The notes under the pieces are model-generated. The model worked only from the letters and a program-made list of their open reading frames with translations, ran no database searches and was not told the origin of the DNA. The position numbers and the translations under genes are program-made. DNA of 64,000 nt, from assembly GCA_022511445.1 (NCBI GenBank), contig JAFLVE010000012.1, positions 26,514-90,513 on the forward strand, read 5' to 3'. Below, piece after piece: positions 1 through 21,462 of the stretch (positions are counted from its first letter, which is position 1; each line of letters starts with the position of its first letter). The stretch comes from Clostridiales bacterium (lineage in GTDB: Bacteria; Bacillota; Clostridia; Christensenellales; Pumilibacteraceae).

Positions 1-2
1 TG

Positions 3-173
3 GGCGTTACCGAGGGCAGGATAGACAGGTGGAAAAATAATTTTTCCATGTACGACGGCGACGTTGACTCGATAACTTACAAGGTGGAAATAGTGGAAAG
101 CGACGCGGTCGCGTTCGAAAAGGATTGCGCAGGCGTCGCGGTAAAAGCGCTTGCACGCGTTCGGCTTGATTAA
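3..173 (+). CDS. 3' end of an upstream gene entering from outside the window (product unknown)
   Basis: Frame 3 is open from nt 3 to TAA at 171-173 (...ITYKVEIVESDAVAFEKDCAGVAVKALARVRLD*). It is on the same strand as the 1500-aa helicase ORF and ends 11 nt before its start. It is absent from the ORF track because no start codon lies in the window. Confidence 0.35.
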   Translation, partial: GVTEGRIDRWKNNFSMYDGDVDSITYKVEIVESDAVAFEKDCAGVAVKALARVRLD

Positions 174-184
174 CGAGGTAAAAA

Positions 185-3100
185 ATGGAATTAGATAGCT
201 TTATTATCGATCTTTTGCATATAAACGACGTCGAGAACAACTCCCTTCTCGACGTCGGCGCCAAGCCGGAAAAGGCGTACAGGCTTTCCCATCCCGACTA
301 CATAGACTTCGGCGAGCACATTATAAGCACCGCCAAGCGCACCTGCGGCAAGCCCGCTTCCACCGTGCTTGCGGGAAGCGCGCTCCTCGGCGAACAGATT
401 GTGGGCAAGATGGTCAGCTCGCTCGAGTGGCGCCGCCTCGACGGTACGCACGACACCTCGAGTCTCGACAAGTTTATTTCGAGCGCGTACAAGGCGATTT
501 CCCAAAAGGGCAACAACCCCCTGTTTTTGGGCGTGGGCGCAATCAAGTGGAAGCTCGCCGGAAAAAAGGATAACGTTATTATTGCGGAGTCGCCGCTGCT
601 CGTTTACCCCATACGCCTCATCCGTTCGGTAAACACCGCGCCCGTATCAATCGAATTTATTAACGACGAGGTGTACCTTAACCCGTGCTTTGTCGCTAAA
701 TTGCAAAAGGTTTTCCCGCTCGTTGCCGAAAAGTTCCCGCACCCCAACGGCGAGGTGGACCTCGACGAGCCCGTCGACACCGAGATTTTGGGCGACGGCA
801 AGGCGTACTTCGACACGGTTGCAAGGTTTGTCAGGGACGCGGTCGGGTCTAACGACACCGTTTTCGAGTTCGACGGCAATTCGGTTGTTATAGCGCCGTA
901 CGAGCACAACGAGCTGTGCATGTACTACGACATCAGGCGGAGAAGGGCGGCTATCGACGCGCACCCGCTTATCGACAGAATTTTCAATAAGCGCGAAAAA
1001 TACACCGTGCCGAACGCTTCCGCCGAGCCCGAATTTATCCGTCCGCGCGACACCGCGCAGGAGAGAATAGTGCGCAGGATTGTGGGCGGCGAGTCCTTAA
1101 TAGTAAAGGGTCCTCCGGGCACGGGCAAAACCCACACCATAATAAACACCGTCGCCGCGCTTATCGCCGCGGGTAAAAAGGTGCTTTTATCCTCCGCAAA
1201 GCTGTCCGCACTATCCGAGGTGTATCAGCAAATGCCGGACGAGCTTCGCGATTACTGTATGCTTCTCGAATGCGAAACGGAGGCGGAAGCGGCAAAGCTC
1301 AATCCGTCGTCCGTAAAAAAGGAGTTCAGAGACCTTTTGGAAAAGCGCAAGGGAGCAAGCTCGCTTCCTCCGTCGGTGTACGAAACCATTCGCCGCTCGC
1401 GCGCCGAAAAGGCGGAGGCGGCGCGGTCGCTTACCGAGTACGTGCGCGAAACCTTTGAGGACAGGAGCATACTCGGACACACCTATTACGAGGCGCTCGA
1501 CAAGGTTTGCGCTTTTTCGGACGGGGTGGACTTCGCTTCGGGAATAGAGCTTTCCTCCCTCCCGCAGGACAAGTTCGGCGATCTTGCCGCCAAGGCGGAC
1601 AAGGCGGGCGAAGCGCTGAAAAAGGCGACGGCGGGCGGAAAGGTTCCATTTAAAAAATGTCCGTGGGCGCCGAATATAGAAAAGCACGCGATGCTTAGCT
1701 ACTTCTCCTGCGATAAGGAAAAGGCGATTAAAACCTATTCCGAGCTTAAAAAAGAGAGCGAGGGCTTGTCCGCCGCGCTTAAAGACGTCGAGAGTAAATG
1801 CGGAGCGTCCGGGCTAAAGCTGTCGTATGCGCCCGCGCTTAACGGAATCCCGTTCGACGCGGAAAAGGCGCGGACTATACTCGAAGCGCTTGCGGGCGCG
1901 GGAGCTATTTCCGCCGCGCTCGACACGTTCCGCGCCTGCGACAAGGCGGAATATAAGTGCGACGGCTTCGACGCGGAAAGTCACGCCGAGTTTGCGTTTT
2001 ACGCGCATCCCGACGAGGAGCTTACCGTTGACGACGCGAGAAAGATTGCCGAAAAGATAGGACTTATAAGCTCGCTGTCCGACGAGGCGGGCGTGGACAG
2101 ACTGTTTGCTTTTGTAGACAGAATCGATAAAATCAACGGGGAAATAAAGGAGCTTGAAAAAACCGTTTCGCGCGCGTTCGATTTTTCGGAGCTTACAAAG
2201 GACGATATTGCCAAAATCGACAAGCTTTCCGCCAAGTTCGGCGGACTTCTCGGCGCGCCCGAAAAGCCTACGCTTTCCATGCGCGGCGCGTATAAAAAGC
2301 TCAGTAAGTTCAGCTACCTTCCCGATATAGAGTTTGCCGAGGTGGCGCGGGCGGCGATTGCGCGCTGCGATATCTCGGCGCGCCTCGGCTCCGTTTACGA
2401 GACGGAGCGGGAGATTAGCCGTATTTACGGCAGGCGCATGGACGAGACCGATTTGTCCGCGGTAAAGTTCGTCGTCGGACGCTGCGCCGCACTCGGCGTT
2501 AAATACGTCGATTACGTTAAGTGGTTTAACTCCAATAACAGAGAGCTGTTTGCCTGCGCCGAAGGGCTTAAAGCGGGCGGCGGCGCCACGCTCGGCGCGG
2601 TGGCGCGCTCCGTTAAATACGCCGCGGCGCGCGACAGACTTATAGAGTCGATGTCGTCGCTCGAGGGTACGCTCGATATTTCGAGCGACAACGCCGCGCA
2701 CGTTGCCGCGCTTGCCGTAGCTCTTTCCGATATCAAGATAACGAGCGGAAAAGAGGACGGGGAGGTTGCCGCGTTTGCGGTCGAAATTGCGGCGGCGCTT
2801 AAAGGAACGGCGCATAAAGCTGAAAGGTTTATCGAAAAAATGTCGGCGTGCGGAGAAAAGCTGTTCGGGAGCTATTACTCGGCAAACGCGGACGACCTTA
2901 CCGCTGCTGACCTCGATATATTTATCGAGCTCTGCGCCGACCGCGACGTGCTCGGCGCCTCGACGGAGTTTTGCAATGCGCTCACCGTCGAAGTGGGGGG
3001 AGTGGGACTGTTGCGCTTCTTTGCGCCCTTTATCTCGGGTGAAAAGACCTTCGATAAAGATACCGACTTCGGCGAGATATTCAAGCTGTCGGCGGTGGCT

Positions 3101-4687
3101 ATCGTTACCGACTATTTTACCGCAAAGCTCGGCGACCGCAAAAACGGCGTAGGCAGGCGCGTTGCCGCCGCGCTCGACGGTTGGGCGGAGGCGGAAAAGG
3201 CGCAGGACGAGGCGACGGTCAAAAAGATTGCCGCAGACTGCATGGCAAAAATCGATCCTAAGGACAGGGATTTCGACTTTCTCGACGCGGACAAGGGCTT
3301 TGACACCACACTCAGGCGGCTGTTCAAAAACCGCGCGAGAGAGATACTCAAGCTTAAAAAAGTATTCCTGCTTTCGGCGTCCACCGCAAGCGTGCTCCTC
3401 GGTAACGACGAGTACGCGTCGTTCGACGTGGTTATTATCGACGAGGCGAGCCAGCTCGAGCCGGTGTGCGCTTTGCCCGTCGTGTCGCGCGCAAAGCAGG
3501 TAGTGCTCGTTGGCGACGAAATGCAAATGCCGCCCATTCACCACTTCGGCGGCAGGGAGGAAAAAACGGAGGAGGACAGCTACGGCGAAACCGTCGTGCT
3601 GACCGGCGATCTTTCCGTTTTGGGACTTGCGCTTACCAACGAGGCGTTCCCCGTCGAGGCGCTTACGGCGCACTTCAGGAGCCGCACCGAGGCGCTTATC
3701 GCGTTCTCGCAGGAGCGGTACTATCCGTACATGCGGACCTTCCCCTCGGCGGTGCCGCGGGGAAGCGGGCTCGGGTTTAAGGATATTCTCGTTAAGGACG
3801 GGCGCTGCGACGGCGGTGTTAACTCCGCGGAAGCAAAGGCGGTCGTCGGCGAGTTAAAGGCGCATTTCGACGAATACTTTAAGGACGGCAAGCTGACCGA
3901 ATCGGTGGGCGTGGTGGCGTTCGGTGTTCAGCAGATAAACGCAATCACTTCGCTTGTCGAGCGCGACAAGGAATTAAGCGAAAAAATAGACAAGGCGCTT
4001 GCGGCGTTTGACGATTTGCCCGAAAATCTGATATTCTTTAAGACGATTGAAACGGTGCAGGGTCAGGAAACTGACCACCTTATTCTGTCCGTCACCTACG
4101 GGAAAAACAAGGACGGCAAGATAGTGCAAAGCTACGGCGAGCTTAACCGCGGCGACCTCGGCGAACGCATATTCAACGTTGCGGTTACGCGCGCAAAGAG
4201 CTCGGTTACCGTCATTCATTCGGTCGAGCCCGTAGATATAAGAGGCGAAAACGTCAGATATATCGGCGAATACATAAAGCTTGCGGAAAGCTTTGCTCGC
4301 GCCGAGGATTCGGTGTTCTCCCGCTCGGGCGGAAGCGAACGCCACGGATTCTTTACGCGCGTCAAGCAGTGCCTTACTTCGCTCGGTATCGACGAAAAGC
4401 GTATCGTATTCGATTGCGGCGTTACCGAGGGCTCGGTGCGCATCCCCGTTGCGGTGCTTTCGCCCGACCTAAAGAGCGCGGAAATAGGAATATGGTGCGA
4501 GACTCCGCCCCGCGTCAACGAGCCGTACATCGACGAAAACTCCAGGTACTATCACATTCTCGAAGCGCGCGGCTGGAAGATGCACAGAATTTGTATCCGC
4601 GACTTCGTGTACAATACCGACGCCGAGGTAAAGAGGCTTAACGCGGCAGTAAAAGAGTGCGTAACGGGACTTGTCGCCGAGGGCTGA
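185..4687 (+). CDS. DUF4011-type Upf1-like SF1 helicase with C-terminal Vsr/DUF559-like endonuclease fold (Hhe-like)
   Basis: Walker A GPPGTGKTHT (nt 1109-1138) and Walker B VVIIDEASQ (nt 3428-3454). Further motifs VLVGDEMQMPP, TVQGQETD and NVAVTRAK are typical of AAA_11/AAA_12 helicases. The C-terminal segment IGIWCE...ILEARGWKMHRICIRDF resembles the Vsr-like end of DUF4011/DUF3320 proteins. Confidence 0.85.
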   Translation: MELDSFIIDLLHINDVENNSLLDVGAKPEKAYRLSHPDYIDFGEHIISTAKRTCGKPASTVLAGSALLGEQIVGKMVSSLEWRRLDGTHDTSSLDKFISSAYKAISQKGNNPLFLGVGAIKWKLAGKKDNVIIAESPLLVYPIRLIRSVNTAPVSIEFINDEVYLNPCFVAKLQKVFPLVAEKFPHPNGEVDLDEPVDTEILGDGKAYFDTVARFVRDAVGSNDTVFEFDGNSVVIAPYEHNELCMYYDIRRRRAAIDAHPLIDRIFNKREKYTVPNASAEPEFIRPRDTAQERIVRRIVGGESLIVKGPPGTGKTHTIINTVAALIAAGKKVLLSSAKLSALSEVYQQMPDELRDYCMLLECETEAEAAKLNPSSVKKEFRDLLEKRKGASSLPPSVYETIRRSRAEKAEAARSLTEYVRETFEDRSILGHTYYEALDKVCAFSDGVDFASGIELSSLPQDKFGDLAAKADKAGEALKKATAGGKVPFKKCPWAPNIEKHAMLSYFSCDKEKAIKTYSELKKESEGLSAALKDVESKCGASGLKLSYAPALNGIPFDAEKARTILEALAGAGAISAALDTFRACDKAEYKCDGFDAESHAEFAFYAHPDEELTVDDARKIAEKIGLISSLSDEAGVDRLFAFVDRIDKINGEIKELEKTVSRAFDFSELTKDDIAKIDKLSAKFGGLLGAPEKPTLSMRGAYKKLSKFSYLPDIEFAEVARAAIARCDISARLGSVYETEREISRIYGRRMDETDLSAVKFVVGRCAALGVKYVDYVKWFNSNNRELFACAEGLKAGGGATLGAVARSVKYAAARDRLIESMSSLEGTLDISSDNAAHVAALAVALSDIKITSGKEDGEVAAFAVEIAAALKGTAHKAERFIEKMSACGEKLFGSYYSANADDLTAADLDIFIELCADRDVLGASTEFCNALTVEVGGVGLLRFFAPFISGEKTFDKDTDFGEIFKLSAVAIVTDYFTAKLGDRKNGVGRRVAAALDGWAEAEKAQDEATVKKIAADCMAKIDPKDRDFDFLDADKGFDTTLRRLFKNRAREILKLKKVFLLSASTASVLLGNDEYASFDVVIIDEASQLEPVCALPVVSRAKQVVLVGDEMQMPPIHHFGGREEKTEEDSYGETVVLTGDLSVLGLALTNEAFPVEALTAHFRSRTEALIAFSQERYYPYMRTFPSAVPRGSGLGFKDILVKDGRCDGGVNSAEAKAVVGELKAHFDEYFKDGKLTESVGVVAFGVQQINAITSLVERDKELSEKIDKALAAFDDLPENLIFFKTIETVQGQETDHLILSVTYGKNKDGKIVQSYGELNRGDLGERIFNVAVTRAKSSVTVIHSVEPVDIRGENVRYIGEYIKLAESFARAEDSVFSRSGGSERHGFFTRVKQCLTSLGIDEKRIVFDCGVTEGSVRIPVAVLSPDLKSAEIGIWCETPPRVNEPYIDENSRYYHILEARGWKMHRICIRDFVYNTDAEVKRLNAAVKECVTGLVAEG

Positions 4688-4787
4688 TTGCCTTTTCGCG
4701 GCGTATTAAACGGTAAATATCCCGATATATCGTCGGGCAATAATAATAAAAAAACTTCGACTTTTTGTCGCAAATAAGGAGATAATC

Positions 4788-5480
4788 ATGGCAAGACAGA
4801 GTGTATTCACGGAAATGGAAACAAGCGTAGGTAAGCGCGTAAAAGAGGTGGGCACCGAATTGCACGAGCAAGCGGTACGCGAAAAGCGCAACGAGTTCAA
4901 CACGCGTATCGACGCTATCGCCGATAAAATAATCGAGTTTCGCGAGAGAAACGCGGAGGAGTATCTTATAGAGATGCTCACCACCTTCCTCGACGTTGCG
5001 CTCGACATGCGCGATCTTATGGACGCGCTCGAAGCGACGAGCCAGGGCATGCAGTGCATAGCCACGGCGGTAGGATTTATCGACGAGATGCTCGAGTTTA
5101 ACATGGGCATGTTCGAGGTTTCGCTCAACCACAATTACGGGTTTTGGCAGAGGCTTAAAGAAAAGCGCCGCATAAGAAAGGCGATAAGGAACAACGCCGG
5201 ACGAATGAAGATGGTCGTTTATAACATGACCGGTCAGCTCAGGTTTGCTCAAGAGCTTGTAGGCGAGATGAAAAACGTCACGGTACAGCTCAAAAAAGCG
5301 ACCGGCAAAAAGAACAAAAAAGGCGAGCCTTCCGGAGGAAAAGCGGAATCGTACGTTCAGCAGCGTTTAAGCAAACGCGGCGGCGAGACAACCACGGAAA
5401 GCAACGGCGGCGCTTCGACGGCGACTCCGCCTCCCGCCGCACCGTCGGGCGATCTCGACAGTATCGACGATATACTTTAA
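4788..5480 (+). CDS. all-helical hypothetical protein with G/S/T/P-rich linker and acidic C-terminal tail (ESCRT-III-like candidate)
   Basis: AAGGAG ribosome-binding site 7 nt upstream. The first ~170 aa are heptad-like and helical in composition. A low-complexity linker (KKATGKKNKKGEPSGG...TATPPPAAPSG) follows, and the protein ends in DLDSIDDIL. I recognise no family by eye. Confidence 0.7.
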   Translation: MARQSVFTEMETSVGKRVKEVGTELHEQAVREKRNEFNTRIDAIADKIIEFRERNAEEYLIEMLTTFLDVALDMRDLMDALEATSQGMQCIATAVGFIDEMLEFNMGMFEVSLNHNYGFWQRLKEKRRIRKAIRNNAGRMKMVVYNMTGQLRFAQELVGEMKNVTVQLKKATGKKNKKGEPSGGKAESYVQQRLSKRGGETTTESNGGASTATPPPAAPSGDLDSIDDIL

Positions 5481-5500
5481 TCTGTAAAGGAGAATAAACT

Positions 5501-6700
5501 ATGGCTATCGGCGGGAGAGCAGGCGGCACGCCCTCGGGCAAGGGCGACGGCAAGCCGGACGAAAAGGACGATTCCATAAGCGCGCTTAAAGAAAAGTTCA
5601 GAGAATCGTACGACAAAATTAAAAAGATTATTGGCGGGCGCAGCGACAAAAAGGATTTCCGTCAGGAGGAGCGCGACGAGCTTCGCCGCGAGTATACCAC
5701 GGCGGCGCGACTTGCCAAGGATATATCAAACCGCGTGACCGACGAGGCGGACAGCGCTAAGTACCTCGAGTTCTACAAGCAGCTTTCGGAGCGCGCCGCG
5801 TCGTACGGCTCGGTCATGAAAAACGAGATTCCCAAAACGACCATGGACGACATAAAGGGGCTCGACAACGTTAAAAAGCTTGTCGACAGCTTCCTGTTTA
5901 TGGCGCAGAATCCCGATATACTCAAGTATTACAAAATGGAAGGCGGACTGGGCGTCCTCATGTACGGCGCGCCCGGAACGGGTAAAACCATGTTCGCGGA
6001 GGCTATCGCAAACCGCATGCAGCTGCCGCTTTTTATAGTTACGCCCGCGGATATTTTTAAGTCGTACGTCGGCGCTTCCGAGCAGGCCGTGCGCGCAATC
6101 TTCGAGGATATAGAAAGCTGTCCCGACGGTGCGGTGCTGTTTATCGACGAGTGTGAATCGATTTTCAGTAAACGTACGGATAGAACGGAGGATTATAAAT
6201 CGGCGGTCACTACCGAGCTATTACAGCGCATTAACGGCTTCGGCGTGGACGGGTCCAAGCGCATCATGGTAGGCGCGACCAACCGCCCCGAAATGATCGA
6301 CCCCGCGTACCTCAGATATAAAAGGTTTTCCTACCTTATCCACGTAACCCCGCCCGACGAGACCGCGCGCCGCGCCATTATCGAGAGCAAGCTTAAAGGT
6401 ATTCAGCTAAGCGGGATTACGCTCGACGAAATTGTCGCCATGACGAACGCCACTTCCTCTCGGCTTACAAGCATGGGCTACGTGCCGGACGAGGACGCTT
6501 ACTACTCGGCGGCGGACATCTGCGGAATCATAGAGGAAGCGTGCCGCCTCACACTCGAAAAAGTGCAGGAGAGCGGGAAACGTCAAACGCTCCCGCTTAC
6601 CCGCGACGTTTTCGAAAAAGCGTTTAAGCAGATTCCGCCCGGCATCTCCGCAAGCCTCCTCCAAAAGTACGAGGACTTTAGGAAAAGCATAAAGTCGTAG
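5501..6700 (+). CDS. single-cassette classical-clade AAA ATPase, Vps4/katanin/spastin-like, with N-terminal three-helix region
   Basis: Walker A GAPGTGKT (nt 5966-5989), Walker B LFIDECES and pore loop KSYVGAS. The second region of homology reads GATNRPEMIDPAYLRYKRF. The C-terminal LLQKYEDFRKS resembles the terminal helix of meiotic-clade AAA proteins. AAGGAG ribosome-binding site upstream. Confidence 0.85.
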   Translation: MAIGGRAGGTPSGKGDGKPDEKDDSISALKEKFRESYDKIKKIIGGRSDKKDFRQEERDELRREYTTAARLAKDISNRVTDEADSAKYLEFYKQLSERAASYGSVMKNEIPKTTMDDIKGLDNVKKLVDSFLFMAQNPDILKYYKMEGGLGVLMYGAPGTGKTMFAEAIANRMQLPLFIVTPADIFKSYVGASEQAVRAIFEDIESCPDGAVLFIDECESIFSKRTDRTEDYKSAVTTELLQRINGFGVDGSKRIMVGATNRPEMIDPAYLRYKRFSYLIHVTPPDETARRAIIESKLKGIQLSGITLDEIVAMTNATSSRLTSMGYVPDEDAYYSAADICGIIEEACRLTLEKVQESGKRQTLPLTRDVFEKAFKQIPPGISASLLQKYEDFRKSIKS

Positions 6701-6716
6701 TATTTCGGCGAAATAT

Positions 6717-6747
6717 AAAACCCGCGAGAAAGCGGGTTTTTGTTTTT
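6717..6747 (+). terminator. intrinsic terminator after the AAA ATPase gene
   Basis: aaaaCCCGCgagaaaGCGGGtttttgttttt: a GC stem followed by a T-run, 17 nt after the stop codon. Confidence 0.7.
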
Positions 6748-6769
6748 GGGGAAAGGTTGAGACTCTTCG

Positions 6770-7235
6770 CTGAAGCTCAGAGTGACAAAAAATGTGCGGC
6801 TGTCGTCAAGCCTTCGGTTAGTGCATAGGACAAAAAGTAAGTATGTCGGCTGTTTATTGTGAGTTCTTCTTATTACCGCTACTACATCATTTCGACCGAA
6901 GCGAGCGAAGCTAAGCGAAACGGAGAAATCCAGGCAAAGCCGCACACTTGCCTCCCACTTTTGCAAAGCCAAAGGGGAATGTGTCCGAATGGCGGTGGGG
7001 GGTTAATTCTTTACCACTTTGCGGCGGTTCGCCTAGACCCCTCGACAAGCTCGGGGTGATGTACGGTAGGCAAGATAGAAATAAGCTGTTACGCCCCGAG
7101 TCGCGCAGCCTTCGGCTGTCGTCAAGCCTTCGGCTTGTCTCTACGGATAAAACGGAGTGCTTTTTTCGGGTGTGAAGTAAAACAAGCAGGTAGGTCTACA
7201 CACGACATACGCCAAGCCTTCGGCTTGCATAAAAA
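6770..7235. repeat. cluster of short hairpin-repeat modules (same family as 12.1, 37.7, 39.3 and 60.7 kb)
   Basis: gtcgtcaagccttcgg(c/t)t occurs at about 6803, 7118 and 7213. The module catcatttcgaccgaagcgagcg (about 6886) and the module cctcgacaagctcgg..tacggtag (about 7040) match modules at 39.3 kb. Confidence 0.55.
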
Positions 7236-7247
7236 AATACAAAACTA

Positions 7248-7276
7248 TTGACACTTAGGCGTGTGTGTGGTACAAT
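7248..7276 (+). promoter_or_regulatory. sigma-A-type promoter (TTGACA-17-TGgTACAAT)
   Basis: Consensus -35, 17-nt spacer and extended -10, located 31 nt upstream of the lipoprotein gene start. Confidence 0.55.
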
Positions 7277-7306
7277 ATAAAATAGGCTTATTAAAAAGGG
7301 GGAAGT

Positions 7307-9139
7307 ATGAAAAAAAGAGTTATCGCATCTGTCGTCGCTTGCGCTGCGGTAGGGCTGGCCTTTTTCGGTTTTGCCGCTTGCGACAAGGCTCCCACGGGCG
7401 ACGGATCGGGTGATAACACCCTTGCTAAGATCGACGTGGGCTCGATAACGGTATCCGAGGAGATCTTTCCGAACGGCAAGCTCGGCACCGTTTTTTCTTG
7501 GAGCGTTGTGGAAAACGCAACCGCGTACTTATTTGACTGCAACGGCACTGAGGTTAAGAGCACTTACCCCAGCGTTACAGTTCAGAACTACAATCAAATT
7601 ACCCTTCCTTCGGACGGTGTATTTAACGTATCAATAAGCGCGACGGCGTACGGATATACACCTTCCGAGCCTGTCTCCTATACCTACACCGTAAGGGGGT
7701 GTGAATTGAACGGCATTTCTGTTACTTCGTTTGACGACGGCATTCTTAAATGGAAAGCCGATCCTTTGGCAAAAGGCTATCTCGTGTCCGTTAACGGCGG
7801 GGCGAGCGTTGCCGTAACTGCCAACGAGTTCGACCTGAACGGCTCCGAGTACGCGGGCGCGGCTAAAGTTACGGTACGCGCCACGGGCGACGGGCTGTAT
7901 ACCAAAACGGGCACGGCGTTTACCGTTAAGATAAACGCCGAACATACCAAGGTTCACCTTCTTCCAATCGAGGAATATACCGTAGCGGACGGCGTTGTCA
8001 GATGGAGCGCGGTGCCCGGCGTTACAAAGTACAAGGTGGTGGACATCGAACGCAACACCGTTGTAACGGAGGATCTTTTTTACGACTATTCGGAAAGCCT
8101 GCCCGTTTACGGCGTTTACCCGATTTCCGATAACGCCGCCTTAGAGAGCGCGGCTGTGGAGCCCGTTCTCATTCCCTATCTCGAGGGCGAGGGCACGAAC
8201 GCTTCCCCGTACAAAATTAAAACGCCTGTAGACTTCCGCGCTATAGACTACTACGAGGCGCGCTACGCCGAAAAGCTTAAAACCGATTCCGACGCACCGC
8301 GCGTCTCCTATGTAATCAATAACAACATAGATTTCAACGCGGTCGGCGCACTCGAAGAAGAGTCCAACTTCTACGCTCTTTCCCAGCCGTTTTACGGCAC
8401 GCTTAACGGCAACGGCAAGGAATTATCCAATATTCGCGTACGCCACCGTTCGGGCTATTGGGCAATGTTCGACTATATAACGAATAAGGGCGCGGTTATG
8501 AACATTAAGTTCGTTTCGCCCGATATTCAGAACTCCATGATTCAGCCCACGCTTCCGCTTAACGCGTCGATTGCCACAATCGCGTATAAAAACTACGGCA
8601 TAATTTCCGCTATAACCGTAAAGGACGCCAACTACAAAACCGCGGGCGGCGAGATTGGCGGAATATGCTGGGACAACCGCGGCATCGTTCAAAACTGCGT
8701 GTTCGGCGGAATTATCGAGCAAAAGGCGACGGGTCAGCCCAACCAGGCGTGCTTTGAGATGGCGGGAATCGTTTCCGAAAACAACGGCACCGTAAGCGGC
8801 AATAAGGTTACCACGCTCGAAATCCGCGGCACCGCGATACCCGATAACGGCAGCTCGTACAACAACGTGCGCTGCGCCGCGGGAATCGTTTCCGTTAACC
8901 GTGCGGGCGGAACGGTTTCCAATAACTCGTTCGAAACGGTTACAATGTCCACCGTTCTTAACGCAATTACCGAGCACGAGTTCGGCGGAATCGTCGCGTA
9001 CAACGCCGGCACGGTAGTAAAGGGCTCGGGCTCGCTCGGCACTTTCATTCACAACGGCACGACGGTAAGCGCGGAGGTGGGAACGAGCTCGTCTCTCCTC
9101 GGCAAGCTTATCGGCAAAAACGAAGGCAAAAGGTCGTAA
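7307..9139 (+). CDS. surface lipoprotein with Ig/FN3-like repeats and GLUG-like motifs
   Basis: Signal peptide with lipobox (LAFFGFAAC). Repeated GGI(C/V)..N.G motifs: GEIGGICWDNRG, AGIVSENNG, AGIVSVNRAG, GGIVAYNAG. Confidence 0.75.
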   Translation: MKKRVIASVVACAAVGLAFFGFAACDKAPTGDGSGDNTLAKIDVGSITVSEEIFPNGKLGTVFSWSVVENATAYLFDCNGTEVKSTYPSVTVQNYNQITLPSDGVFNVSISATAYGYTPSEPVSYTYTVRGCELNGISVTSFDDGILKWKADPLAKGYLVSVNGGASVAVTANEFDLNGSEYAGAAKVTVRATGDGLYTKTGTAFTVKINAEHTKVHLLPIEEYTVADGVVRWSAVPGVTKYKVVDIERNTVVTEDLFYDYSESLPVYGVYPISDNAALESAAVEPVLIPYLEGEGTNASPYKIKTPVDFRAIDYYEARYAEKLKTDSDAPRVSYVINNNIDFNAVGALEEESNFYALSQPFYGTLNGNGKELSNIRVRHRSGYWAMFDYITNKGAVMNIKFVSPDIQNSMIQPTLPLNASIATIAYKNYGIISAITVKDANYKTAGGEIGGICWDNRGIVQNCVFGGIIEQKATGQPNQACFEMAGIVSENNGTVSGNKVTTLEIRGTAIPDNGSSYNNVRCAAGIVSVNRAGGTVSNNSFETVTMSTVLNAITEHEFGGIVAYNAGTVVKGSGSLGTFIHNGTTVSAEVGTSSSLLGKLIGKNEGKRS

Positions 9140-9157
9140 TAGGTAGGGGGTAGAGTT

Positions 9158-12028
9158 ATGAGAGAGAATTTTAAAAGCTTACGCTTTCTTAATCTGAAAA
9201 GGATCGCCGTCTTACTCGCGCTTGTAGTTTCGTTTGTGCTTATCGGCGTTTCCGGCATTGTGGGAAGTCACGCGACTTTGCCCGTTCCGCTCGCCGACGA
9301 TACGAAAACGCTTACCATTCACGTTTACGACACGACGCAGGAATACCATACGCTTGCCGCATGGGTTTGGCTGAAGGGTGAGGACGGCGTGGAGTACAGA
9401 ATGAGCACCTCCGCGGCGCCCGACGAGGGTTTCCTAAAAGAGTACGAGCTGGACGGTCAGACCGTAACCAACAAGGCGTTTACCGTTACTGCGTCGTTTA
9501 CCGCCGCGCAGCTTTCGCGCGCTACGGCAATAGGCTTCCTTATCTGCAAACAGACAGGCGGAAGCGGCGAAAAGTTTTGGGACAGGTACGTTAAAGAAAC
9601 CGCCGACGTGTTTATAGACGTAACGTTATTTGACGGAAACAACACCGTCGACATCTACTATATCAGAAAAGACTCCGTTGCATATACTAATTTGGAGGAA
9701 GCGAAAATGGCGCTCGAAAAAGTTTTAAGCGCGCGTTTTATCAGCCAGACCGCCGTTGAGTTCGAGGTTACAAGCCCGCTCACCACGTCGACCCCCGTCG
9801 TGCTTTTGGACGGCGGCGTCGAGAAAATGACGGTCAACGCATTGCCCGATTCCGCAAACCCGTTTAAGGGCACGGCGGCGTTTACCAATCTCGACTTCGA
9901 CTACGCCGCGGATTACAGCATTAAGGTAGGGCTTATCCCCACGCCCGCGCCCGTTTCCAAAGCGGCGCTCCTCGACGACGACGGCTTTATAAAAGCGTAC
10001 GAGACCGAAGAAGTGCAGAGCATGGAGTACGGCGCTCTCTATACCCCCGAAAAGACGGTGTTCCGGCTGTGGGCGCCGTTTGCAAGCACGGTCAGTGTTA
10101 TGTTCTATGCTCACGGCACGGACGGCGAGGTGACCTACGGCATGCCTATGAAAAAGGTCATAGACGGCGCCACCGGCAAGTGGGCGGGCGTTTGGGAGTA
10201 CGAGCGCCAGGGCGATTGCCACGGTCTGTACTACACCTATTTAATCAATAACGGCGGCATCGAGGTGGAAACCATCGACCCGTACGCCAGGGCGTGCGGT
10301 CTTAACGGCTTGCGCGGCATGGTTGTCGATATGAACAAGGTCAACCCCGACGGCTGGGAAAGGGACAACTTCCTCTTTAAGCTCAACGAGGACAACGCCG
10401 AAGTGCCTATCATCTGGGAGCTGCACGTCCGCGACTTTTCCTCGTCCGCCGATTCCGGCATGGTCAACAAGGGCAAGTACCTCGCCTTTACCGAGAAGGG
10501 TACCACCGTTCCCGGCACCGATATAAAGACGGGCGTCGACTACCTTAAGGAGCTCGGCATTACTTACGTTCACCTTAATCCCGTGTACGACTTCGGCTCT
10601 ATCGACGAGAGCATCACGACCGATATCTACAATAAGGATAAGTTCAACTGGGGCTACGACCCGCAGAACTATAATATTCCCGAGGGCTCTTACTCGTCCG
10701 ACCCGACCAACGGAAGCGTGCGTATCAACGAGTTTAAGCAAATGGTTATGGCGCTCCACGAAGCGGGCATCGGCGTTATTATGGACGTAGTTTACAACCA
10801 CACCTATTCCACCGCAAACCTCCCGCTCGGCGACGCAGTACCCGGCTACTTCTACCGCACAAACGTAAACGGCGAGTACACCGACGGCTCGGGCTGCGGC
10901 AACGAGATTGCTTCCGAACGCTCCATGGTCCGCAAATACATGGTCGATTCGGTGCTGTACTGGGCAAAGGAATACCATATCGACGGCTTCCGCTTCGACC
11001 TTATGGGCGTTCACGACCTGATTACGATGAACACCATTCGCAGCGAGCTCGACAACCTTTACGACGACGGCAGCACACGCAAGCTCCTTATGTACGGCGA
11101 GCCTTGGACGGGCGACGGCGTGGACAGCGCAAGACAAGAGGGCGGCGAGTATGTTAAATATTCGTACCACACGAGAGTAAACGCGACCTCTTCCGCTATC
11201 GAGGGGACGGGCAAGTATACTCTTAACGCAGATAATAAGCTTGTAGTCGATTCTTATTACAAAGGCTCTATACGCGACCTCGACTCCCGTATCGCGGTGT
11301 TCGACGGCTACGGCAGAGACGGCGTGCGCGGCGGAAGCTGGGATATAGACGCGCGCCAGGACGGCTGGGTGCAGGGAAACACCGGCAAGGCGGGCGACGT
11401 AAGAGGTATGCTCTGCGGCAGTAACATGGGCATGAGCCAGGCTTCGCAATCGGTTGCTTACGCGTCTGTTCACGACAACTTTACGCTGTACGACCACCTC
11501 GTCGGCAAGTCGAGCGGAAAGGAAACCATGCTGAGCTACAACGTTCCCATCGACCACTTTATGAATATGCAGAATACGGTATCCGCGGTTTGCCTTATGT
11601 CGCGCGGTATATCGCTTATGATAGCGGGCGAGGAGATGTCGCGCACAAAGTACGGCAACCACAACTCGTACAACTCGCCGATTAAGCTTAATCAGATAGA
11701 GTGGAGCAGACAGGTTGCATTCTCTAAGGTGCACGACCACTACAAAAAGCTGATTGCGGTAAGAAAGGCGTACAAGGATATTTTCTCGTACACCGCGGCG
11801 CAGGACCGCGACGCCGTTTCCGTAACGGTCAGCGGCTCGGGCGTTATTACTCAGACCCTCACCAAGGACGGCGTAACACTTAAAGCGGTGTACAACGGCG
11901 GCGAAACTACGGCAAGCGTATCCACCGGCGGCTACAAAGTGTACGTCGCCAACGGCAATGTGACGAACGGCTTCAGCGGCTCGCTCGCCCCCAAGTGCTG
12001 CGTAGTATTCGGCACGCTGGATGTGTAA
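9158..12028 (+). CDS. pulA: type I pullulanase (GH13)
   Basis: GH13 conserved regions DVVYNHT, DGFRFDLMG, YGEPW and SVHDNFTLYD. N-terminal membrane anchor and CBM-like N-terminal domains. Confidence 0.9.
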   Translation: MRENFKSLRFLNLKRIAVLLALVVSFVLIGVSGIVGSHATLPVPLADDTKTLTIHVYDTTQEYHTLAAWVWLKGEDGVEYRMSTSAAPDEGFLKEYELDGQTVTNKAFTVTASFTAAQLSRATAIGFLICKQTGGSGEKFWDRYVKETADVFIDVTLFDGNNTVDIYYIRKDSVAYTNLEEAKMALEKVLSARFISQTAVEFEVTSPLTTSTPVVLLDGGVEKMTVNALPDSANPFKGTAAFTNLDFDYAADYSIKVGLIPTPAPVSKAALLDDDGFIKAYETEEVQSMEYGALYTPEKTVFRLWAPFASTVSVMFYAHGTDGEVTYGMPMKKVIDGATGKWAGVWEYERQGDCHGLYYTYLINNGGIEVETIDPYARACGLNGLRGMVVDMNKVNPDGWERDNFLFKLNEDNAEVPIIWELHVRDFSSSADSGMVNKGKYLAFTEKGTTVPGTDIKTGVDYLKELGITYVHLNPVYDFGSIDESITTDIYNKDKFNWGYDPQNYNIPEGSYSSDPTNGSVRINEFKQMVMALHEAGIGVIMDVVYNHTYSTANLPLGDAVPGYFYRTNVNGEYTDGSGCGNEIASERSMVRKYMVDSVLYWAKEYHIDGFRFDLMGVHDLITMNTIRSELDNLYDDGSTRKLLMYGEPWTGDGVDSARQEGGEYVKYSYHTRVNATSSAIEGTGKYTLNADNKLVVDSYYKGSIRDLDSRIAVFDGYGRDGVRGGSWDIDARQDGWVQGNTGKAGDVRGMLCGSNMGMSQASQSVAYASVHDNFTLYDHLVGKSSGKETMLSYNVPIDHFMNMQNTVSAVCLMSRGISLMIAGEEMSRTKYGNHNSYNSPIKLNQIEWSRQVAFSKVHDHYKKLIAVRKAYKDIFSYTAAQDRDAVSVTVSGSGVITQTLTKDGVTLKAVYNGGETTASVSTGGYKVYVANGNVTNGFSGSLAPKCCVVFGTLDV

Positions 12029-21195: not shown

Positions 21196-21462
21196 TTAAC
21201 AAAATATGCTACTGTGGCTCAGTCGGTAGAGCAGCTGATTCGTAATCAGCAGGTCGGCGGTTCGAGTCCGCCCAGTAGCTCCAAACGGCATATAAGGGCG
21301 CATCTTGCGCCCTTTTTGCGTGCCTTGCGCTCGGTCCTCGATTCTCGATACGGAGCCGCGGCATACATATACGGCATACAATTCGAGTTTGTCGGGAAGT
21401 TTTTGCCGGCTCATTTTCAGTTTTTTGCGGAGCTTTGCGACATTTTCCCCGATGAGATTCAT
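21196..21462 (-). pseudogene. remnant of an XRE-family HTH regulator that runs into the tRNA
   Basis: The N-terminus MNLIGENVAKLRKKLKMSRQKL...SVSRIE looks like an XRE helix-turn-helix. The C-terminal third is simply the antisense translation of the tRNA, and no ribosome-binding site is seen. Confidence 0.35.
21208..21283 (+). tRNA. tRNA-Thr (anticodon CGU)
   Basis: I folded the cloverleaf manually. It has a 7-bp acceptor stem, a D-arm gctc/gagc, an anticodon stem gctga/tcagc with loop ttCGTaa, a T-arm ggcgg/ccgcc, and an encoded CCA. Confidence 0.9.

Follow-up and report, generated by a model that had tools for sequence, protein, structure and literature searches.

A helical-hairpin protein of an unannotated family and a classic-clade AAA+ ATPase are encoded by a conserved gene pair in a helicase-rich operon of gut Clostridia

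We analysed two adjoining genes, here called D and E, in a window of 64,000 nucleotides from a Clostridiales bacterium (assembly GCA_022511445.1, contig JAFLVE010000012.1, positions 26,514 to 90,513 of the forward strand). D encodes a helical-hairpin protein with a flexible C-terminus that ends in a short conserved motif, and E encodes a single-cassette AAA+ ATPase. The two genes form a conserved pair and are not chance neighbours. The reading we favour, in which we place about even confidence, is that they constitute a dedicated client/adaptor–unfoldase module of a probably conflict-type system, analogous to Vps4/ESCRT-III. It builds on what was observed: the linkage of the genes, the modelled folds, the intact motifs, the conserved tail and the content of the operon. 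The original prediction for this locus, made from the sequence alone, had instead proposed a bacterial ESCRT-III-superfamily polymer and its Vps4-type disassemblase. The open reading frames (ORFs), the DLDSIDDIL and PPPAAP stretches, the ATPase motifs and the terminator that it listed are all where it had placed them, and the features of the pair are as follows.

4776-4781, + strand: AAGGAG, Shine-Dalgarno sequence of D, from sequence inspection
4788-5480, + strand: gene D, 230-aa hairpin protein of an unannotated family
4791-5123, + strand: helical hairpin of D, from the AlphaFold2 model and conservation, including TFLDVAL at 4983-5003
5133-5327, + strand: basic segment of D, residues 116-180, net charge +14, including RNNxGR at 5187-5204
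5328-5450, + strand: Ser/Gly/Thr/Pro/Ala-rich flexible linker of D, with one predicted helix at residues 185-198
5427-5444, + strand: PPPAAP stretch in D
5451-5477, + strand: acidic-hydrophobic C-terminal tip of D, DLDSIDDIL
5487-5492, + strand: AAGGAG, Shine-Dalgarno sequence of E
5501-6700, + strand: gene E, 399-aa single-cassette classic-clade AAA+ ATPase
5567-5809, + strand: N-domain of E, residues 23-103, a three-helix bundle in the model
5954-6346, + strand: AAA core of E, with Walker A (5966-5989), pore loop (6059-6073), Walker B (6137-6160) and sensor-1/second region of homology (SRH; 6272-6328)
6452-6502, + strand: family-specific insertion of about 17 aa in the lid domain of E, from the alignment with reference AAA proteins
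6644-6688, + strand: C-terminal helix of E, ISASLLQKYEDFRKS, residues 382-396, common to p97-D2, Vps4, katanin and spastin
6717-6750, + strand: intrinsic terminator at the operon end, a 9-pair stem-loop (6717-6740) followed by a T-run

Related loci were searched for with an 18-sequence alignment. D is followed by E in all 22 distinct loci where the sequence past D is visible, which bears out the pairing made in the original prediction. The genes adjoin directly in 20 of these loci, with gaps of 3-52 nt (20 nt in the window), and are separated by one small gene in the other two; they are never farther apart. The loci come from metagenome-assembled genomes labelled Christensenella, Coproplasma, Borkfalkia or Clostridiales, and most keep the same gene order. 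D and E are kept together even where neighbouring genes of the operon are lost: the upstream helicase gene, C, is missing in L006/L016 and L015, and both C and the gene before it, B, are missing in L027. The helicase next to which the original prediction had placed the pair is indeed in the same operon, but a specific tie to it did not hold, since C is missing in three loci that keep D and E. The two intervening genes differ: a 76-aa acidic ORF in L028 (10888-11118), and a 248-aa membrane protein of the CvpA (Colicin_V) family in the P0223 contig (GCA_016648615.1).

D belongs to a family of its own by descent. An exhaustive profile search gathered 201 representatives at 50% identity, nearly all of 215-270 aa. 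Searches of Pfam, NCBIfam, PADLOC and PHROGs with D returned no family match, only sub-threshold noise (e.g. Pup, UvsW.1, SSB tail), and searches of PDB sequences with D and with its profile returned only coiled-coil noise. The AlphaFold2 model, built from 133 sequences (mean predicted local distance difference test, pLDDT, of 78.8), shows a hairpin of helices 2-53 and 58-112, i.e. twice about 55 residues, with pLDDT above 90. It is followed by short helices at 125-150, a helix at 185-198 and a disordered tail. D is thus helical, as originally proposed, over about 150 aa and not about 170, because of the helix boundaries in this model. The charge along the protein runs from neutral to -11 and then to +14, with the acidic tip last, and TFLDVAL and RNNxGR are the invariant core motifs of the family.

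D ends in a C-terminal tip whose family consensus is [G/D]-I-[D/S]-D-I-[L/V]-COOH. The motif occurs in 110 of the 143 full-length members, against about 1.3% expected from the composition of the linker, and in 98 of these 110 it lies 0-2 residues from the C-terminus. The Pro-rich stretch is not conserved across the family. The original description of D as helical, with a flexible linker and a docking-type motif at its C-terminus, stands, the motif being conserved, and the same holds for the description of E as a single-cassette classic AAA+ ATPase with a C-terminal helix.

E matches PF00004 with 110.9 bits (cutoff 21.2; E-value 8e-32). Its motifs are GAPGTGKT (residues 156-163), KSYVG (187-191), LFIDECES (213-220) and GATNRP...LRYKRF (258-276), and Walker A, Walker B, the pore-loop aromatic, sensor 1 and both SRH arginines are intact. 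Judged by these motifs, E is probably a catalytically intact classic AAA+ protein translocase, presumably ring-forming. The first residues of the protein (5501-5518) read MAIGGR here and MAGIG[RK] in most homologues; they are nearly invariant and precede a variable low-complexity stretch.

The assignment of E to the Vps4/katanin type, made in the original prediction, was not supported. Its alignments and tree instead point to a distinct lineage within the classic AAA clade, because of the bit scores, the tree, the SRH, the missing beta-domain and an insertion of its own in the lid. In NCBIfam, the best-ranking models were the Cdc48 D2 region (141.8 bits), PAN (129.4), CdvC (124.4), IteA (112.5) and FtsH (111.9). 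The closest solved structures are those of p97/VAT D2, and since the alignment with them runs through the C-terminal helix, this helix does not set apart Vps4, katanin and spastin, whose signature it had been taken to be. We also compared E with reference AAA modules, checked against PDB chains at about 2.1 bits per residue (essentially identical), and scored them by phmmer with E and with the hidden Markov model (HMM) of the E family. The scores, in bits, are as follows.

p97-D2: phmmer 120, E-family HMM 132
PAN: phmmer 109, E-family HMM 120
FtsH: phmmer 94, E-family HMM 103.5
spastin: phmmer 93.5, E-family HMM 103
Vps4: phmmer 89, E-family HMM 100
katanin: phmmer 88.5, E-family HMM 103
Msp1: phmmer 66, E-family HMM 75

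In a small neighbour-joining tree with eight such references, Vps4, katanin, spastin and Msp1 form the meiotic clade with 100% bootstrap and E branches outside it; a position of E as sister to this clade has only 22% support. The SRH of E reads LR-YK-RF and has the length found in p97, PAN and FtsH (LRPGRF, or PG-type, spacing), and the two-residue deletion of the meiotic clade (LRR-F) is absent. The alignment shows no beta-domain of the Vps4 kind in the small AAA subdomain. With Pfam Vps4_C, E reaches 15.6 bits, under the 21.3-bit cutoff, and 2 of 120 homologues have a recorded match to this model. The lid insertion, TSSRLTSMGYVPDEDAY (about 17 aa, 6452-6502), varies in sequence yet is kept in all aligned homologues. 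The nearest matches in sequence are the D2 cassette of Cdc48/p97/VAT (120-132 bits, including the C-terminal helix) and PAN (109-120 bits), which share the PG-type SRH spacing. However, E differs from them in having one cassette, no Cdc48 N-domain, no PAN coiled-coil/OB ring, no HbYX tail, and the 17-aa lid insertion.

The N-terminal region of E was modelled with AlphaFold2 from 22 sequences (pLDDT of about 80-87 in the helices) and has exactly the three helices that had been predicted (23-44, 55-78, 82-103). The model superposes on the MIT domain of CdvC (2w2u) with a TM-score of 0.81-0.82 and a root-mean-square deviation of 2.0-2.3 Å, but with a Foldseek E-value of 1.8, and no Foldseek match of the N-domain reached E<0.1. 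Other matches include the MIT or N-domains of Vps4 (4niq), katanin (5lb7) and calpain-7, and designed bundles, BAG, Nro1 and 14-3-3 match about as well. At the sequence level, Pfam MIT matched none of the 22 N-domains at E<=10, the N-domain profile retrieved no MIT chain from the PDB, only coiled-coil noise, and hhalign against the Vps4 MIT gave 0.4%. The domain, which the original prediction called MIT-like, is so in the shape of its model only.

Similar comparisons were made for D and the ESCRT-III superfamily, of which the original prediction named PspA and Vipp1 as the bacterial members. Snf7 (PF03357) and PspA_IM30 (PF04012) have no match among 133 D-family members at E<=1, and the family profile found no ESCRT-III chain in the PDB. 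With verified ESCRT-III reference sequences, hhalign of D gave 0.4% for PspA/Vipp1 as the reference, 5.1% for the eukaryotic ESCRT-III proteins and 1.4% when the two sets were pooled; a comparison of the two sets with each other, made as a positive control with equally thin profiles, gave 68% over 190 columns. Foldseek of D against the PDB and BFVD returned nothing at E<0.1, the best E-values being 1.8 and 0.45, respectively. ESCRT-III entries came at ranks 16-38 with a probability of at most 0.16, amid many unrelated coiled coils (CdvB2 at rank 38 with an E-value of 5.3, phage PspA and Snf7 with 2.4-2.8). Foldseek is weak on elongated hairpins, and the fold comparison by itself is no proof against kinship; yet taken together the tests leave homology of D to ESCRT-III unsupported. 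Inspection of D reveals no amphipathic N-terminal helix and an alpha1 that is not basic, followed by an acidic helix 2 and a basic middle segment, a charge layout unlike that of ESCRT-III. The tip of D, 5-6 residues long, matches neither the MIM1 nor the MIM2 consensus and is too short for the MIM1 helix, and the Pro-rich stretch is not conserved.

How, then, does the original model fare as a whole, with D a bacterial ESCRT-III-superfamily polymer, E its Vps4-type disassemblase, and an MIT domain that binds a MIM-like tail in the service of membrane remodelling? Its layout fits: E is a single-cassette classic AAA+ protein whose small N-domain, of three helices, can be superposed on the MIT of CdvC and on the N-domains of Vps4 and katanin, and which has a C-terminal helix. 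The gene of E adjoins that of a helical protein of about 230 aa, in which a hairpin of about 110 residues is followed by shorter helices and a flexible linker, with a short conserved motif at the C-terminus. In addition, the operon encodes a polytopic membrane protein, g2, and one variant has the CvpA-like membrane protein between D and E. But E lies outside the meiotic clade, with PG-type SRH spacing, no beta-domain and negative MIT profiles, and unrelated three-helix bundles match its N-domain equally well. D gives no signal in profile or fold searches, has another charge layout, and has a tip that is neither a MIM helix nor a Pro-rich MIM2; and the pair sits in a helicase-rich operon. We regard this model as very unlikely. 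Vps4-like ATPases appear to be absent from bacteria according to a 2025 review (PMC7619361), which is why a true bacterial ESCRT-III/Vps4 pair would be notable; on present evidence, the locus leaves this absence unchanged.

A looser variant retains the polymer and drops the detectable homology. D would be a polymer- or coat-forming scaffold that assembles either on nucleic acid or on a membrane, there with g2 or CvpA-like proteins as partners. It would be convergent with ESCRT-III or have diverged from it beyond recognition, and E would disassemble it upon docking of the tail. We hold this to be distinctly unlikely too.

What survives of the polymer-or-substrate pair is its second half. A substrate or adaptor paired with an unfoldase is a reasonable model, because the pair is conserved, E has the architecture described above, and D carries a linker with a conserved tip. 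In the client/adaptor–unfoldase reading, the three-helix N-domain of E is the likely client-binding site, and the tip of D, on its flexible linker, would tether D to the N-domains of E. ATP-driven threading by E would then remodel or unfold D itself or an assembly formed or coated by D, and in this way other components of the operon (helicase, nuclease and putative protease) may be turned on or off. Docking of the tail to the N-domain, the unfolding of D and a role in conflict or defence are what we infer here. Covariation between the tail of D and the N-domain of E tracks phylogeny and is uninformative with about 19 pairs. The closest functional precedents, by analogy, would be Vps4–ESCRT-III, ClpV–VipB, ClpX–SspB and especially IetA/IetS. 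ClpX–SspB, ClpV–VipB and the hubs built on the SSB C-terminus resemble the pair in that a short terminal peptide, joined to a folded body by a long flexible linker, docks to the N-domain of a partner (as it may in D), but show no kinship with it in sequence or fold.

The remainder of the operon bears on what such a module might serve. The left edge of the window cuts the operon, and we recovered its upstream part (1-11980) from the window's own contig, as locus L026. The genes are all on one strand, with gaps ranging from an overlap (g2/X) to 34 nt, except for a spacer of about 100 nt between C and D. They come in the order S, g1, g2, X, A, B, optional C, D and E, and the operon varies from 5 to 9 genes.

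S, 976 aa: SNF2 helicase with a Cys-rich C-terminus, its 5' end cut off in L026; the top PADLOC matches are DrmD
g1, 551 aa: Cys-rich, multi-Zn-ribbon protein
g2, 1318 aa: polytopic membrane protein that carries numerous MBG (YGX-type) repeats
X, 398 aa: Zn-ribbon/Sel1-like protein
A, 498 aa: coiled-coil protein, L026 8471-9967
B, 659 aa: HExxH protein, L026 10001-11980; its 3' end is at 3-173, + strand, of the window, where the left edge cuts the gene and the frame-3 translation aligns with the C-termini of B homologues
C, 1500 aa: DUF4011/superfamily 1 (UPF1-like) helicase with a C-terminal MTES_1575 restriction-endonuclease-like domain, 185-4687, + strand, of the window

C matches Pfam AAA_11 (6e-20), AAA_12, DUF4011 and MTES_1575, and PADLOC PDC-S37 (1.8e-118) and Hhe (1.4e-54). 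In NCBIfam it stays below the equivalog cutoffs of ProA (388 vs 1500 bits) and Hhe (250 vs 2000 bits). It shares with Hhe, PDC-S37 and ProA the DUF4011, a split superfamily 1 helicase and a PD-(D/E)xK-type nuclease; however, those are described as single-gene systems, whereas C sits, as an optional insert, within an operon of several genes.

B, for which a protein search found only 6 close homologues, has the pattern HExxH...(~50 aa)...E-x-D-A-x-A-F, invariant in 15 homologues, and this suggests a putative zincin-type protease. Such a protease recalls Wss1/SPRTN, which works with Cdc48. A profile of the C-terminal domain of B had no match in the PDB. Searches of Pfam, PADLOC and NCBIfam with B, A, X, g1 and g2 gave, beyond a faint Pfam SprT-like match in B, only Zn-ribbons, coiled-coil noise and MBG/Ig repeats.

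A shares a feature with D. After an acidic stretch, its homologues in L012-L031 close with a conserved tip of the type I-[VI]-P-[LV]-G-[DN]-D-D-K, with some variation. The A protein of the window's genome has the tail REDLDDILHTER, which contains LDDIL and resembles the tip of D; the tip of A may also tether A to the N-domains of E.

A tip of this kind has another possible use. In an SSB-like arrangement, the basic segment of D would bind nucleic acid and its acidic tip, like the DDDIPF of SSB, would recruit the helicases of the operon, with E acting independently. D does consist of a folded domain, a low-complexity linker and an acidic-hydrophobic tip. Its +14 segment includes the invariant RNNxGR, the operon carries two helicases, and residues 138-228 weakly match an NCBIfam model of the SSB C-terminal region (E-value 0.024). 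But this match is far below cutoff and driven by composition, and D has no OB fold. The adjacency of D and E is invariant, whereas C is dispensable and S is missing in L028. These facts make an SSB-like hub improbable.

The operon content suggests a conflict-type system, given its pair of defence-type helicases, the nuclease domain, the HExxH protein, the modular make-up and one context resembling an integrative and conjugative element (ICE). The latter is that of L028, which is about 5-8 kb from genes for a ClpP-like protein and a type IV secretion system coupling protein. This locus lacks S, g1, g2 and X but has an added leucine-rich-repeat protein.

A precedent among conflict systems is ietHAS, a validated anti-phage defence in which a DrmD-like SNF2 helicase works together with an AAA ATPase and a protease (PMC13069673). 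One could imagine a toxin-antitoxin logic as in IetAS, with E, as an antitoxin-type ATPase, continuously restraining a toxic effector (B or the nuclease of C), D acting as adaptor or decoy, and infection or plasmid entry freeing the effector. In favour of this, the best PADLOC matches of E are IetA (2.6e-35), an AAA protein of the classic type and of similar size, and the AAA antitoxin, protease toxin and SNF2 helicase of ietHAS (PMC13069673) have possible counterparts here in E, in the invariant-HExxH protein and in the helicase with DrmD-like matches. On the other hand, E reaches 112.5 bits against the 510-bit equivalog cutoff of IteA and is no closer to IetA than to generic classic AAA proteins. 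No locus encodes a subtilase, the operon having an HExxH protein instead; ietAS has no D-like partner and the operon here is much larger. B is missing in L027 and C in three loci, all of which retain D and E. An IetAS-like restraint of a toxin is unlikely in our view, though we place it first among the alternatives to a client/adaptor–unfoldase module.

Several observations weigh against the latter module. The tail of D could dock to another protein of the operon instead of E, and D has no detectable relative of known function that would point to the substrate of E. The defence role is by association only, and no copy of D turned up in phage, plasmid or IMG/VR collections. For a defence gene, E shows unusually high conservation (60-91% identity between loci), and the operon occupies the same chromosomal site in close relatives. 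The protease assignment of B consists of the motif and the faint SprT-like match (E-value 0.065, in 2 of 15 members).

The absence of D from phage, plasmid and viral collections and the unusual conservation of E keep a housekeeping role in play, e.g. in Christensenellales the assembly of g2, the large surface protein with MBG repeats, or control of its quality, with no conflict system involved. The unchanged chromosomal position and the membrane/surface nature of g2 fit this role. The two defence-type helicases, including one helicase-nuclease of the Hhe/PDC-S37 type, do not, nor does the modular gain and loss of components. Moreover, all parts but E evolve fast (20-45% identity), and the ICE-like context is that of L028, which has no g2. 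We place housekeeping behind the IetAS-like explanation and ahead of the SSB-like hub, as an improbable account of the operon.

The borders of the pair show some variation. The C-D spacer (4688-4787; 100 nt) is A-rich and unusually long, since gaps elsewhere are mostly of 0-30 nt or replaced by a slight overlap. It contains a weak promoter-like match, TCGACT-18-GATAAT, at 4757-4786, and an internal promoter for D and E is possible there. Past the terminator, the spacer is about 0.6 kb in the window (6750-7306) and about 1.65 kb in the close relative L009 (11198-12851), where it contains two small ORFs of 132 and 64 aa, i.e. an indel at the 3' border of the operon. The sole RNA gene found in the window with ARAGORN and Rfam is a tRNA-Thr(CGT) at 21208-21283. 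In L030, an ORF (2061-3377) is E-like up to the P-loop and continues as a ComM/YifB Mg-chelatase-like protein. We rejected a domain swap in this case: the contig, with 1.9x coverage, is most likely chimeric and joined at the P-loop.

These results add to the known repertoire an unannotated family of about 200 clusters, that of D, with a clear short linear motif, and a new classic AAA+ lineage strictly coupled to it. They also bring to light a previously undescribed operon of 5-9 genes in abundant gut Clostridia of the Christensenellales type, in which two defence-type helicases occur together with an HExxH protein and a large surface protein. Were D a scaffold disassembled by E, the pair would represent the first Vps4-type assembly/disassembly cycle in Bacteria, and the switch of a new multi-helicase anti-mobile-element system. 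More generally, a tail motif that is recognised by the N-domain of the ATPase could explain how an unfoldase is brought to control a multi-component conflict system, and IetAS, whose mechanism is unsolved, may work in a similar way.

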